The notes under the pieces are model-generated. The model did no database searches, was not told where the DNA came from, and worked only from the letters and a program-made list of their open reading frames with translations. DNA of 64,000 nt from Alphaproteobacteria bacterium. Lineage in GTDB: Bacteria; Pseudomonadota; Alphaproteobacteria; JAJTHO01; CANGXP01. Shown here one piece after another: positions 19,519 to 63,970 of this stretch; the stretch's first letter is position 1, and the number at the start of each line of letters is the position of its first letter. The position numbers and the translations under genes were made by a program. The DNA is taken from contig CANGXP010000004.1 in assembly GCA_947457935.1 (NCBI GenBank), positions 5,617 through 69,616 of the forward strand. Direction: 5' to 3'.

Positions 19519-22500
19519 TTACACCGCCTCTTGTAACGCATTCACCCCTAAATCCCCTGATTTCATGGCGGCAATGGCAGCGGCTGTTGCTTTTGCGCCC
19601 GCAATGGTGGTGATGCACGGAATGCTGTTATTAACACAGGTGCGGCGGATGGAGAAGCTATCCGAAATCGCTTGTTTGCCGCTGGTGGTGTTAACCACCA
19701 AGTGGACATCGCCATTTTTTAGGCTATCCACAATATGCGGGCGACCTTCTGCCACTTTATTGATGCTGGAGACGTCAGCACCGTTGTTTTGTAAAAAAGC
19801 GGCGGTGTTGTGGGTGGCACACACTTTAAAGCCAAGGCGCAGATATTCTTTCACCAACTCTACGATTTTCGGTTTGTCATCATCTTTAACAGAAATAAAC
19901 ACCGTGCCTGTGGTGGGCAACACGTTGCCTGCCCCCAACTGCGCTTTGGCGTAAGCACGGGCAAAATCACTATCAAAGCCCATCACCTCGCCAGTAGATT
20001 TCATTTCGGGCCCTAAGAGAGGATCAACGCCTGTGAAGCGGGAGAACGGAAACACCGCCTCTTTCACTGCAACATGTTTGAGGGTGAGTTCTTTCAACCC
20101 AAACGACGCGAGTTTTTCACCCGCCATAACTTTTGCGGCAATTTTTGCAACCGTAACCCCTGTGGCTTTCGCAACAAAAGGAACAGTGCGGGAAGCGCGG
20201 GGGTTAACTTCAAGAATATATATTTGAGACTCGAGGTGCGAGGCGCGAGGCGCGAGAGGGGAAGAAGTTTTGGAGGTGTTGCTAGAATTTTCTTCTTCCT
20301 CGTGCCTCGTGCCTTGCGCCTCCTCTCCGCCCTTCACCGCAAACTGCACGTTCATCAACCCCACCACCTGCAACGCTTTAGCAAGTTTCTCGGTTTGCAC
20401 TTTAATTTCTGCGACAATTTCTGGGGCAAGCGAGTAGGGGGGCAGGGCACAGGCAGAGTCGCCTGAGTGAATACCCGCTTCCTCGATATGCTCCATAATC
20501 CCTGCAATGTGGACGGTTTCGCCATCACTAATCGCATCCACATCCACCTCAATCGCATCTTTAAGGTAATAGTCTATAAGGATAGGATTATCCCCAAATT
20601 CTTTCAGGGCTTTTTGCGCGTAGGTACGCAAGCCCTGCACATCGTGGACGATTTCCATCGCCCGCCCGCCCAACACATAACTCGGGCGGATGACAACAGG
20701 ATAGCCGATGTCTGCGGCAACAGCTTCGGCTTGTTCTATCGTTAAGGCCGTTCCATTGCGCGGTTGTTTCAGGTTGATTTTTTGGAGGAGTTGCTGGAAG
20801 CGTTCCCTGTCTTCTGCCAAGTCAATCGCATCAGGAGACGTGCCGAGAATAGGAATGTTGGCGGCTTCCAAGGCTGCTGCCAGTTTCAGCGGGGTTTGTC
20901 CGCCAAACTGCACAATCACGCCTTTGAGCGTGCCTTTGGATTGCTCTTTGCGACAGAGTTCCAGCACATGCTCAGGGGTAAGCGGCTCAAAATAGAGCCT
21001 GTCTGAGGTGTCATAGTCGGTAGAAACCGTTTCAGGGTTGCAGTTCACCATGATGGATTCTAAGCCCATTTCCCGCATTGCGTAGGCTGCATGGACGCAA
21101 CAATAGTCAAACTCAATCCCTTGACCTATCCTGTTTGGTCCACCGCCCAGAATAATGACCTTTTGCTTACCAGAGACGTTCGCCTCACACACGGTTTGCC
21201 CGTTAAACGCCTGCTCGTAGGTGGAGTACATGTAAGACGTATTGGTTTTGAACTCACCCGCGCAGGTATCAACCCGTTTATACACAGGGTTTACGCCCGC
21301 TTTGTGGCGCAATGCTGTAACCTGTGTTTCAGGGATAGCGAGGAGTTTTGCAAGACGCGCATCAGAGAAACCAAGTTGCTTGATGGTGAGCCACTCATTA
21401 GGGGTAAGGGTTTCTTCGCGAGGCCCGCTTCTAAGCCACTCCTCAATATTCACAACATGCTGAATTTTCTCTAAAAACCACGTATCAATTTTGGTGATTT
21501 TATAAATCTCTTCAACGGTTAAGCCCTTGCGAAAGCCTTGTGCGACATGCAAAATGCGGTTTGGCACAGGCGTACCGAGCGCTTGGCGGAGTTCTTCTAC
21601 TGTAGAATCTTCCATGATTTCATCAAAGCCCGTTAGCCCAATTTCCATGGACACCAAGGCTTTTTGCACACTTTCTGCAAAGTTGCGCCCAATGCTCATC
21701 GCTTCCCCCACAGATTTCATGGAGGTGGTTAAGAGTGCATCCGCCCCTGGGAATTTCTCAAACGTAAAGCGCGGCATTTTGGTGACGACATAATCAATCG
21801 ACGGCTCAAATGAGGCAGGCGTGGTCACAGTAATATCATTTTTCAGTTCATCCAGCGTGAAGCCTACCGCCAGTTTTGCGGCGATTTTCGCAATGGGGAA
21901 ACCTGTTGCTTTTGACGCCAGCGCCGACGAGCGGGACACACGCGGGTTCATCTCAATCACCACCAAGCGCCCGTCTTTCGGGTTTACCGCGAACTGCACG
22001 TTACTGCCGCCCGTTTCAATGCCAATTTCCCGCAATACGGCAAGCGAGGCATTGCGCATAATCTGATATTCTTTATCAGTCAGCGTGAGGGCAGGGGCAA
22101 CGGTGATGCTATCACCTGTGTGAATGCCCATGGGGTCAATGTTTTCGATGGAGCATACAATAATGGCGTTATCCGCCTTATCGCGCACCACTTCCATCTC
22201 ATATTCTTTCCAGCCGAGCACCGATTCCTCCACCAATGCCTCATGGGTGGGGGAGAGTTTTAGACCGTTGGAGATAATATCAACGAACTCTTCACGGTTA
22301 TAGGCAATGCCGCCGCCTGTACCCGCGAGCGTAAAAGAGGGGCGAATAATGGCAGGGAGTCCCACGACATCTAGGGCTTTCAGGGCTTCTTCCAACGAGT
22401 GCACCAACACACTTTTAGGGGATTCTAAGCCGATTTTGTCCATGGCATCGCGGAATAAGAGTCTATCTTCCGCTTTGGCAATCGCGTGCTCATCCGCGCC

Positions 22501-22848
22501 GATGAGTTCAACATTATATTTCTTCAAAACACCGTTTTTGGAAAGCGTCAGTGCGGTATTCAGCGCCGTTTGTCCGCCCATGGTGGGGAGAAGAGCATCA
22601 GGGCGTTCTTTGGCGATCACCTTTTCGACAAATTCGGGGGTGATGGGTTCAATGTACGTTGCATCCGCCAAGTTGGGATCGGTCATAATCGTGGCAGGGT
22701 TAGAGTTCACCAATACCACACGATAGCCTTCTTCGCGCAAGGCTTTGCAGGCTTGTGCGCCCGAATAATCAAACTCGCATGCTTGCCCGATAATAATGGG
22801 CCCTGCGCCGATGATAAGGATGGTTTTGATGTCTGTACGTTTGGGCAT
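19519..22848 (-). CDS. carB: Carbamoyl-phosphate synthase large subunit, with a ~33-aa repeat-derived insertion
   Basis: [17 protein letters not shown], two ATP-grasp domains, MGS domain. Confidence 0.99.
20225..20328. repeat. Heptamer-tandem hairpin inserted in frame in carB
   Basis: cgaggtg cgaggcg cgaggcg cgagagg ... cctcgtg cctcgtg ccttgcg cctcctc. Confidence 0.88.
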
Positions 22849-29945: not shown

Positions 29946-30047
29946 GATAGGCACGAGGCACGAGGCACGAGGGGAAAAAGGAAGTAATCTAAAAACTTTC
30001 TTCTTGCAATTCCTCATGCCTCGTGCCTCGTGCCTCGTGCCCCTATC
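29946..30047. repeat. Intergenic heptamer-tandem hairpin, same family as the carB insert
   Basis: gataggcacgaggcacgaggcacgagg ... cctcatgcctcgtgcctcgtgcctcgtgcccctatc. Confidence 0.9.
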
Positions 30048-56012: not shown

Positions 56013-56050
56013 GGGAAGGAGGGGTAAGGGTTAGGGGGTAAGGGCTAAGG
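56013..56050. repeat. Heptamer tandem (CTTACCC-type), single arm, directly before the topA ATG
   Basis: Minus strand: cttagcc cttaccc cctaacc cttaccc ctccttc cc ATG. Confidence 0.7.
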
Positions 56051-61302: not shown

Positions 61303-63285
61303 CTATCCCCGAAAATGCTCGTAAATCTTCCGCGCGATCGCTTTGCTAATCCCGCGCACATTTTCTAAATCCTGTAGTGCTGCGCCCTTCACTGCCTTTG
61401 CTGAACCAAAATGCTGCAGTAACGCCTTTTTACGCGCTGCCCCAATTCCTGTCACTTCATCCAACGTATTCTGCGTAATCGCTTTGCTCCGTTTTGCTCG
61501 ATGGGTGGTAATGGCAAACCTGTGTACTTCATCGCGGAGGCGTTGCAGATAAAACAATACAGGGTCATTCGGCGGCAATGTATAGGGTTGCTTATTGGGC
61601 AGGAAAAACCGCTCGCGTCCTGCATTTCTATCAACGCCTTTCGCAATCCCCACCAGAGGAATATGCGCTAATCCCAATTCCGCCATTACTGCCATCACGG
61701 TGGAGAGCTGCCCCGCGCCGCCATCAATCAGCACCAGATCAGGTAAGGCGGGAGGCGGCAGGTGGGGGGCAAAAGTGGCAGCACCGTCCTCTCGCCCATC
61801 GCCTCCTACCTCTCGTCTATTCTGAACCGTATTTTCTTTCAGTGCCCGCGAAAAACGACGGGTGAAGACTTCCCGCATCATGCCATAGTCATCGCCGCCT
61901 TTGAAGGCGGGAGGCGGGAGTAGGGGGGCGGGAGTAGTAAGATTTTCCTCTCGCCTCTCGCCCATCGCCTCCTGCCTATTTTGAATGGTAAACTTACGAT
62001 AGGCGTTCTTGATGAATCCCTCTCTGCCCGCCACAATCATCGCGCCAACGGCAAATTGCCCCTGAATGTGGCTGTTATCATACACCTCAATCCGTTCGGG
62101 GATTTTGTCTAACCCGAATAATTTTTGCACTGCCGCAAGATTTTTTTCTGTTGAGGCAGATTCCACCAACTTCCGCGTCAATGCCTCTTGCGCATTTTTG
62201 AAGGCATGGTCTACCACCGCTTTTTTCGCGCCCCGTTGTGGCGTTTCTAGCACCACTGTATGCCCTGTTTTTTGCGAGAATGCCTCTTCTAACAGTTCCT
62301 TCGCTGCTATCTCCACATTGAGCAAAATAGCGGTAGGGCAGGGGGCTTCTGTATAGAATTGCGACAGAAAACTCTCCACAATTTCATTGAGCGGCGTTTC
62401 ACTGTCATGGTCAAGATAATAGGCTTTATTCCCATAATTCCGCCCACCGCGAAAGAAAAACACCTGCACACAGGTTTTGCTGGCTTGCGAGTGCGCTGCC
62501 ACCACATCCACCTCCTCCAACATGGCGATGTTCACATCTTGCTTGGCTTGAATGTGGCTTAATGCCTTGATTCTATCGCGATACAGCGCGGCGCGTTCAT
62601 ATTCTTGCGCCTCGCTTGCCTCGTTCATTTTGGTGGCAAGTTCCTCTTGCAACTGCCCACCCTTGCCCTCAAGGAAGCTCTTGGCTTGTTTGACGAGAGT
62701 TGCATAATCGGCTTGGGTAATTTTCTCCACACACGGCGCAGAACAGCGTTTAATTTGATATTGCAGGCAGGGGCGAGTACGGGCGTTGAAGTAACTGTCC
62801 GAGCACGGGCGCAACAAAAAGGTTTTTTGCAGGGCATCGAGGGTTGCATACACCGCTTGCACCGCCGCAAACGGTCCAAAATAATGCCCTTCTCGTGTTT
62901 TTTTGCCCCGATGTTTCAGAATTTGCGGAAATTTGTGGTCGGTCGCAATCAGAATATAGGGGAAGGCTTTGTCGTCCTTCAGCAACACGTTATAGCGCGG
63001 CTTGAGGTCTTTAATCAGGTTGCTTTCCAAGAGCAACGCCTCGTGTTCCGTGTGGGTGGTGATAAACTCCATCGCCACCGTTTCGGCAATCATCCGCTGA
63101 ATGCGATTGGTGAGGGCTTCAGGGCGTGTATAACTTACAACCCGTTTTTTGAGAGCCTTTGCCTTGCCCACATACAACACCTCGCCCGCTGCATTGAGCA
63201 TGCGATAGACCCCCGCTTGGTCACCCAGCGTTTTCAGGTAGTTTTGAATGGTGGCAACGCCACGATGAAGGGAGGAGGGGGGCAT
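61303..63285 (-). CDS. uvrC: Excinuclease ABC subunit C, with two repeat-derived insertions
   Basis: GVYRM, YVGKAK, C..Y.IKRC.APC, DNSH, IDGG.GQ, RDE.HRFA, HhH. Confidence 0.98.
   Translation of the reverse strand: MPPSSLHRGVATIQNYLKTLGDQAGVYRMLNAAGEVLYVGKAKALKKRVVSYTRPEALTNRIQRMIAETVAMEFITTHTEHEALLLESNLIKDLKPRYNVLLKDDKAFPYILIATDHKFPQILKHRGKKTREGHYFGPFAAVQAVYATLDALQKTFLLRPCSDSYFNARTRPCLQYQIKRCSAPCVEKITQADYATLVKQAKSFLEGKGGQLQEELATKMNEASEAQEYERAALYRDRIKALSHIQAKQDVNIAMLEEVDVVAAHSQASKTCVQVFFFRGGRNYGNKAYYLDHDSETPLNEIVESFLSQFYTEAPCPTAILLNVEIAAKELLEEAFSQKTGHTVVLETPQRGAKKAVVDHAFKNAQEALTRKLVESASTEKNLAAVQKLFGLDKIPERIEVYDNSHIQGQFAVGAMIVAGREGFIKNAYRKFTIQNRQEAMGERREENLTTPAPLLPPPAFKGGDDYGMMREVFTRRFSRALKENTVQNRREVGGDGREDGAATFAPHLPPPALPDLVLIDGGAGQLSTVMAVMAELGLAHIPLVGIAKGVDRNAGRERFFLPNKQPYTLPPNDPVLFYLQRLRDEVHRFAITTHRAKRSKAITQNTLDEVTGIGAARKKALLQHFGSAKAVKGAALQDLENVRGISKAIARKIYEHFRG
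61746..61818. repeat. Heptamer-tandem hairpin in frame in uvrC (copy 2)
   Basis: aggcggg aggcggc aggtggg ... cctctcg cccatcg cctccta cctctcg. Confidence 0.8.
61905..61977. repeat. Heptamer-tandem hairpin in frame in uvrC (copy 1)
   Basis: aggcggg aggcggg agtaggg gggcggg ... cctctcg cctctcg cccatcg cctcctg. Confidence 0.82.
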
Positions 63286-63902: not shown

Positions 63903-63970
63903 TTTTCGGTTTTAGGTTCTCGGTTTTGGCAAGTTCGTCCTTAAAACCTAACACCGAAAACCCGAAACCT
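63903..63970. repeat. Heptamer-tandem hairpin (CGGTTTT/AAAACCG type)
   Basis: ttttcgg ttttagg ttctcgg ttttgg ... aaaacct aacaccg aaaaccc gaaacct. Confidence 0.75.

Follow-up and report, generated by a model that had tools for sequence, protein, structure and literature searches.

How can an essential, highly conserved enzyme come to carry a long heptamer hairpin within its reading frame, and where does such a hairpin come from? This question is raised by carB in a 64,000-nucleotide (nt) stretch of contig CANGXP010000004.1 (GenBank assembly GCA_947457935.1, positions 5,617 to 69,616 of the forward strand), referred to here as the window. It belongs to the genome of a small freshwater alphaproteobacterium (G000; 1.83 Mb, 99.6% complete), and coordinates are window positions unless a contig is given. 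The carB gene (19519..22848, minus strand) encodes the large subunit of carbamoyl-phosphate synthase, 1109 amino acids with the insert included, as judged from the open reading frame (ORF) list, the translation, Pfam (CPSase_L_D2 at 3e-101, CPSase_L_D1, D3 and MGS) and phmmer against E. coli CarB (1bxr_A, E 1.1e-127). Within it lies an in-frame insert of 99 nt, or 33 codons, at 20227..20325 on the minus strand. We consider it probable that this is a tolerated, translated and fast-decaying selfish insert of a class of heptamer hairpins that resembles the intervening sequences (IVS) of rRNA genes.

The limits of the insert come from a codon-level DNA alignment with a sister species of the same genus (G001), a member of the same family (G002) and ten further relatives. 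The bordering codons are GGA (Gly) on one side and CAA (Gln, aligned to Glu of the relatives) on the other, and a shift of one codon leftward is equally good. The insert has 33 codons in G000 and 23 in G001, and G002, in which the turn reads IKDDVIYLLE, has none. When 30 relatives were searched for orthologues, the insert was missing in all 25 that are outside the genus and have CarB, the match ending at query residue 839-843 and restarting at 873-876; four relatives gave only weak matches to other ATP-grasp enzymes. The sequence-only reading had claimed 33 extra in-frame residues in a turn of the CarB ATP-grasp domain, and the orthologues together with the alignment to E. coli CarB bear this out. 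What it gave as the normal wording of this turn is matched exactly, over 20 residues, by two CarBs (P0010 and P0108).

In the phmmer alignment the residues before the insert match 711-836 of 1bxr_A and those after it match 835-1056, and because of where these alignments end the insert is placed between E836 and V837 of E. coli CarB. Q835, E880 and N882, which are invariant in an alignment of 48 CarBs, are the equivalents of E. coli Q829, E841 and N843. The latter are probably nucleotide or metal ligands; a literature search on these roles gave nothing relevant. The insert lies in the beta-turn that joins the two strands bearing Q835 and E880/N882. The earlier placing of the insert beside the active site therefore stands along the sequence, where these residues flank it. 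An AlphaFold2 model (mean pLDDT 81.9) retains strands 829-839 and 875-882, and for residues 842-872 it is without secondary structure, at pLDDT values below 50. The insert is thus modelled as a disordered loop between two intact strands and is most likely a disordered, unconstrained surface loop of 33 residues.

At the DNA level the insert is nearly coextensive with a hairpin that is predicted from folds of both strands to span 20226..20329; the span first proposed, 20225-20328, is that of the hairpin itself and not of the codon-bounded insert. The arms are tandem heptamers, GGCRCGA and TCGYGCC, which together make a long imperfect palindrome, and they contain variants specific to this copy. 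Tandem Repeats Finder (TRF) gives a period of 7 and 3.6 copies on each side: CGAGGCG on the plus strand at 20232..20256, which is the 3' arm of the message and reads TCGCGCC there, and CCTCGTG on the plus strand at 20298..20322, also found by pattern search, which is the 5' arm of the message and reads GGCACGA. The proposed build of (CGAGGCG)n, spacer and (CCTCGTG)n is thus confirmed on both arms. An inner purine/pyrimidine stem (20260..20299) is formed by GGAAGAAG (20260-20267) and CTTCTTCC (20292-20299) with an apex of 24 nt and encodes 14 residues; other copies also have purine/pyrimidine inner stems of a similar kind. The window contains the two-unit word 7 times compared to 0.22 expected, and 7 or more were seen in 0 of 100 shuffles. 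When the fold energies predicted for both strands were compared with shuffles (n = 200 for the carB hairpin), the plus strand folded at -71.8 kcal/mol (z -9.0) and none of the shuffles was as good, and the mRNA strand folded at -47.4 kcal/mol (z -3.96) and one of the 200 was as good. The minimum-energy fold has nine G-U pairs on the plus strand and none on the mRNA strand, where the arm differences are A-C mismatches. Both the pairing asymmetry and the weaker hairpin in the message had been read from the letters, and both hold; the asymmetry recurs in other in-gene copies.

The same turn of CarB appears to have been used repeatedly. The insert in G001 is a different hairpin of 23 codons at the same point, with arms (GGCAGCA)n and (TGATGCC)n. 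Contigs from X2 and X13, two of the four Logan runs that were checked, run across the site, where they have 32 or 35 letters of other sequence, which equals a 10-codon insert, VKGG-DGQDSSSPKP-E-IY; identity to the window is about 92% for the X2 contig. Proteins P0003-P0005 contain the 10-residue form as well, and two of them, P0003 and P0004, share 97% overall identity with CarB of G000. The form is a remnant in a closer relative. In a protein search that listed 120 CarBs, 104 have the standard spacing, 14 are longer and two were mis-scored because the script took the N-terminal half. Two of the 14 longer ones, P0006 and P0008, which are 58-59% identical overall, have inserts in this same turn, of 35 residues and WGKGWEARGARREEKENQLAPRASRLPT, respectively. 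The DNA of these two was absent from the 119 listed contig-scan loci (tblastn) and from 401 genomes of the class (best identity 60%), and it is from the same peptides in G000 that we infer their inserts to be translations of (GGCGCGA)n and (TCGCGCC)n. On this basis three lineages or more would have received a hairpin of this type in the turn, which may therefore mark a place where ATP-grasp enzymes permit the insertion of loops.

Could the loop be an adaptive addition to CarB, selected for a function of its peptide such as regulation or interaction? The frame is kept in an essential enzyme, and each of the three genus-level group members that were sampled has some insert at the turn, which is what such selection would give. 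The peptide itself, however, is unconstrained: the flanks are 92-97% identical among G000, G001 and P0003/P0004, and the inserts are of 33, 23 and 10 residues with little that can be aligned. Moreover, the peptide is the plain translation of the repeat (ARGTRHE... / ...LAPRAS), as it is in seven other unrelated proteins, and the loop is predicted to be disordered. We therefore hold an adaptive origin to be highly improbable.

It may also be asked whether the insert or its loop was created from repeated arms during assembly. In all four Logan runs 20242-20309 is uncovered by contigs, those of the best-matching run end at 20228, the edge of the hairpin, and many contigs of G001 terminate at such arrays. 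The loop sequence is that of the assembly alone, since no Logan contig spans 20242-20309. On the other hand, both arms adjoin carB sequence in frame, the arms have their copy-specific variants, the identical 1109-residue protein is found on three contigs of the protein collection, and independent assemblies of relatives have different inserts at the very same codon. An assembly artefact is extremely unlikely in the face of this evidence.

The carB hairpin is one member of a dispersed family. A script search of the 1.83-Mb genome found 15 paired heptamer hairpins, 11 of them with the GGCRCGA unit, with loops of 11-77 nt and total lengths of 55-121 nt, and a looser seed search found more copies; the genome total is at least 17. 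The two-unit GGCRCGA word occurs 34 times in G000 compared to 0 for a reversed control. Eight copies are palindromic in-frame insertions in six unrelated protein genes, namely those for CarB, UvrC (two copies), a fused GlyQS, a cytidylyltransferase, UvrA and an IleS-like class I synthetase (two copies), and Pfam supports the identity of these host genes. All eight are in frame and without stops, and no frame-breaking copy was found among the G000 hairpins examined. The seven intergenic copies tested all separate two different complete genes, for example those for an aminotransferase and a HAD hydrolase, for RNase PH and PGK, and for a terminase and a portal protein. The loops of different copies are unrelated except for purine/pyrimidine tracts.

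These counts bear directly on whether the hairpin is cut from the carB transcript and the ends rejoined in the manner of an intron, so that the protein would be made without the 33 residues. The stem is designed like those of rRNA intervening sequences, and RNase III cuts the stem of the Coxiella IVS in vitro (PMC4990558); G000 encodes RNase III (rnc), and S23p cassettes with such stems lie inside 16S and 23S rRNA genes of relatives. RNase III, however, leaves two fragments with no known rejoining, and the message would be destroyed. Excision would also remove any need for the eight in-gene copies to be in frame and free of stops, or for every length change among G000, G001 and the X2-type relative to be of whole codons, as is found for CarB (33/23/10), for IleS twice, for UvrA and for uvrC insert 2. 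None of the seven tested intergenic copies splits a gene, and it is the sense-strand stem that is degraded. Rfam gave for the carB hairpin only miRNA-precursor models below the gathering threshold (best 34.5 bits, cut-off 73) and no intron or ribozyme. Excision of the insert is thus very unlikely, and read-through into protein is the reading that we retain.

The weakening of the hairpin on the strand that is transcribed is not peculiar to carB. The mRNA-strand fold is the weaker one in all eight internal in-gene copies of G000, by margins of 2.0-24.4 kcal/mol, and in all six in-gene copies of G001. The G001 sample was enlarged by inspection of 35 regions, in which most copies were intergenic or at contig ends, and the gain was limited to GlyQS and a Pol I-like ORF. 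The latter, labelled from its FAIDTETTSL motif, has an in-frame hairpin upstream of that motif (L210, G001:C84, 3955-4060; sense -53.4, antisense -71.8 kcal/mol), and the Pol I site was not found in G000 by two motif searches. Intergenic copies have no consistent strand direction. At the variable base of the heptamer the 3' arms of in-gene copies have C 16 times, T 5 times and A 4 times (C 5 : T 1 at silent third positions), and the 5' arms of the message have A 22 : G 5; intergenic copies mostly retain T, as seen by eye and not formally counted. A change of T to C in the 3' arm of the message turns an A-U pair into an A-C mismatch, so that the mRNA hairpin is weakened and the opposite strand keeps a G-U pair. 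We prefer selection at the RNA level as the cause of this bias, although it is not the only possible one.

Where the family members come from can be approached from sites that are filled in one species and empty or altered in another. The two IleS inserts and the UvrA insert are common to G000 and G001 and missing in G002 and beyond, and in these shared inserts the arms are alike and the loops are shortened or different; one 3' arm of G001 has been homogenised to TCGAGCC. The cytidylyltransferase insert is missing in G002, and the gene itself was not found in G001. The one clean filled/empty site is in uvrC, where insert 1 (61903..61983, minus strand; Pfam UvrC) is in frame with unit GGCGAGA / TCCCGCC and has a counterpart at the same place in G001. 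Insert 2 (61747..61824, minus strand, 78 nt), also in frame, is paralogous to insert 1; the latter lies upstream in the gene, at a distance of about 80 nt. The site of insert 2 is empty in G001. The folds are -34.9 (sense) and -44.3 (antisense) for insert 1 and -40.9 (sense) and -42.9 (antisense) for insert 2. Insert 2 aligns to insert 1 at z 7.9, flank-like end included, and four T are present at the junction both in the filled site of G000 and in the empty site of G001, so that there is no target-site duplication of the type made by MITEs (miniature transposable elements with inverted repeats), as judged at this one site only. Neither reverse transcriptase (PF00078) nor Y1 transposase (PF01797) was found in the 99.6%-complete genome in a search for these two families.

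Some of these results could also be accounted for if each hairpin arose where it stands, a heptamer-like word of the host gene (e.g. GGC GAG) being expanded by replication slippage and the inverted arm being made by a template switch. The uninserted relatives read AAG GGC GAG GAC or AAG GGC GAC GAG ATC at the carB site, which is one base off GGCGCGA, and inserts of this type occupy the turn in the two distant CarBs, P0006 and P0008, too. The unrelated loops, the clean uvrC site without target-site duplication and the failure to find either enzyme fit such an origin too, as do the plain direct (GGCRCGA)n arrays that are found in many phyla. Most other insertion sites, however, are unlike the unit, and in uvrC the second insert can be recognised as a copy of the first. 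In addition, the copies in a genome have a single unit, specific to the lineage, that recurs in the S23p cassette of that lineage, and lineages with GTGAGTR are without GGCRCGA arrays and vice versa. A local origin is therefore unlikely, and copying from another family member remains our preferred reading.

The S23p cassette bears on the wider affiliation of the family. G000 has two S23p (PF05635) genes, one with GGCRCGA arms (C10:33176-33481), which sits between iscS and iscU, and one with AGGCGGG arms (C12:9463-9774), AGGCGGG being the plus-strand reading of the uvrC insert arms. When 31 genomes were searched for the family, 10 had S23p genes, 17 in all with the two of G000 included, and most of the 16 genes that were inspected have inverted heptamer arms. 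In two relatives the S23p gene lies within the 5' part of a 16S rRNA gene (L028, G003:C16, and L029, G008:C26), with arms (CAGGTAA)n and (CAGGAAT)n, and in two further cases (L030 and L024) it adjoins 23S rRNA sequence. The iscS-iscU cassette is syntenic across the order, and its two arms change unit together (L025/L026/L022/L015-L018/L021), being GGCRCGA in G000, G001 and G002, GGTGAGT in G003, G006, G008 and G013, and of the GTGAGTG type in G004. The dispersed arrays follow the same division in G000-G004 and G008. The GGCRCGA x2 word occurs 34, 153 and 17 times in G000, G001 and G002, respectively, and not at all in G003, G008 and G004, and the GTGAGTR x2 word is absent from the first three genomes and occurs 5, 20 and 37 times in G003, G008 and G004, respectively. 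This covariation is a correlation over few lineages, and it shows that the dispersed arrays and the S23p cassette of a genome share one evolving unit.

Arrays of (GGCRCGA)3 also occur in other phyla, in at least 119 stretches. Among the matches listed, 27 of 124 (GGCRCGA)n arrays have a complementary partner within 700 nt, and no S23p-like ORF was present in the seven longer-loop cases that were translated. Because few are paired and no such ORF was found, this spread across phyla says little on the carB element. Direct (GGCRCGA)n arrays of 120-160 nt were also seen in unrelated phyla at L127, L120, L111 and L138, in organisms such as Acuticoccus kalidii, an Acidobacteriota metagenome-assembled genome and Lentzea cavernae.

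A sister copy in the window with near-perfect arms fills the gap between the genes for a class IV aminotransferase and a HAD hydrolase, as identified by Pfam (29946..30047, no strand assigned; TRF arms 29949-29972 and 30012-30041). It folds at -66.8 and -66.2 on the two strands and is thus without strand bias. The earlier claim that the carB hairpin matches this element holds for the arms and the general build and fails for the loops, whose local alignment reaches only z 1.9 compared to shuffles. Further arrays lie in the window at 50484-50544 (CGGGTAG / AAACCCG), 56020-56050 (AGGGGTA) and 63903-63970 (TTTTCGG / CCGAAAA), and two of them are hairpin pairs. The presence of these other units would therefore mean several unit families in the genome, a number exceeding its two S23p genes. 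Elsewhere in the genome a hairpin (L230, G000:C7:18057-18132) occupies the space that separates the genes for a phage terminase large subunit and a portal protein, so that prophage-like or gene transfer agent-like DNA bears the element too. In G001 many contigs end at GGCRCGA arrays (153 two-unit words compared to 34 in G000), which suggests a recent expansion that fragmented the assembly.

A probable explanation of the carB insert is then as follows. The 99-nt segment would be a copy from a dispersed family of hairpin DNA whose stems are like those bracketing S23p genes. It would have arrived by copying at the DNA level from another family member, without a target-site duplication and without a detected reverse transcriptase or Y1 transposase, in a manner somehow linked with the lineage's S23p cassette. 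Once in place it is presumably transcribed and translated through and not removed from the mRNA, and CarB would tolerate it because the turn is a permissive site. Decay after insertion appears to be fast and may proceed by slippage of heptamers, loss or replacement of the loop, and deletion. The weakening of the stem in the message may reflect selection against a long perfect stem in translated RNA, either as a target of RNase III or as a block to the ribosome, and this selection step is the least secure part of the explanation.

Several points weigh against this explanation besides the gap in the Logan contigs and the unrelated loops, the latter being unlike those of ordinary MITEs. Read-through of the insert is deduced from kept frames only. 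The sample behind the strand bias is small and partly non-independent, because four or five of the six G001 copies share ancestry with G000 copies. Two G000 copies close to the 5' ends of ORFs (at 20 and 65 codons within the stop-to-stop frame) go in the opposite direction, which makes the count 8 of 10 with them; they were excluded after their positions were known and are probably upstream of the real starts. The stems that bear S23p genes have no strand bias (7 sense-stronger vs 9). A change of T to C also removes Val and sometimes Cys codons, so that selection at the protein level or homogenisation of arms could yield the same bias, and Cys codons were kept in three of four first-position cases in G000, which leaves neither reading clean. 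Finally, the S23p link is a correlation over five relatives plus G000.

How the copying might be tied to S23p can be put only tentatively. The Avd proteins, which are accessory to diversity-generating retroelements, are relatives of S23p. S23p is a small helical-bundle protein, described as a homopentamer in Xanthomonas (PMC4990558). It is conceivable, if doubtful at present, that the hairpins without an ORF are non-autonomous satellites of the S23p cassette and that S23p recognises the 7-nt unit of its own lineage and promotes copying of the stem. If so, S23p/IVS elements would form a mobile DNA class that has no canonical transposase, and the strand-specific decay within genes would be a record of selection against RNase III processing of messages. 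Apart from this proposal, the data indicate that 33 junk residues can lie between strands with invariant catalytic-site residues in an enzyme that is essential and highly conserved. They add two testable regularities, namely that the hairpin unit covaries with the unit of the S23p cassette and that the loss of hairpin strength is specific to the mRNA strand. There is a practical side as well, in that such inserts break short-read assemblies and inflate apparent protein divergence, as in IleS, which is 82% identical between the sister species compared to 93-96% for the other genes compared.

These observations join three subjects, namely the heptamer repeats of bacteria, rRNA intervening sequences, whose S23p gene is unexplained, and selfish DNA in genes of the Rickettsia style, and in the open-access literature we found no paper that joins in-frame heptamer hairpins with S23p or that reports the strand bias. 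Tandem heptamers, some of them as inverted pairs, are known from Xanthomonas and Nostoc, where GGGAATC-type repeats typically have about four units, form 70-75 convergent pairs per genome and possibly make stem-loops (PMC4692102). Those heptamers are depleted within coding sequence and were read as G-quadruplex formers, and the passages of that paper on these repeats make no tie to in-frame inserts or S23p (PMC4692102). Geobacter metallireducens has 49 elements of four heptanucleotide repeats within and between genes, which are described as putative regulatory RNA elements, unlike our reading of the present ones (PMC2700814). MITEs such as Correia/NEMIS and REP/REPIN are likewise short, non-coding, hairpin-forming, dispersed and sometimes within genes, but the hairpins described here differ from them in having no target-site duplication at the one clean site, no conserved interior and no Y1/RAYT transposase that we could find.

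Two further precedents are known. The Rickettsia palindromic elements (RPE), the classic in-frame selfish repeats, form families of about 150 bp with conserved sequence and peptide (PMC10969869). The carB insert and its kin are like them in being small palindromic repeats in frame in unrelated housekeeping genes of a small-genome alphaproteobacterium, and in adding a peptide that would be read through at sites the fold tolerates (PMC10969869). They are unlike RPE, as far as the description of RPE in that paper goes, in that only the arms of 7-nt repeats are common to the copies, the loops are unrelated, the lengths are 55-121 nt and the unit varies with the lineage (PMC10969869). The other precedent is the rRNA IVS, of which the one in helix 45 of the 23S rRNA of Coxiella burnetii has a stem of tandem GACAGAT repeats that vary in number by strain and is cut there by RNase III (PMC4990558). 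Unlike an IVS, the carB copy is without an ORF of its own, lies within the carB frame and not in a helix of 16S or 23S rRNA, is most likely translated and not excised, and has a degraded sense stem. It is like the S23p-bearing IVS of Coxiella in that the stem is built of inverted tandem heptamers (PMC4990558), and the same stems bracket both S23p genes of G000 and those inside the 16S and 23S rRNA genes of its relatives.

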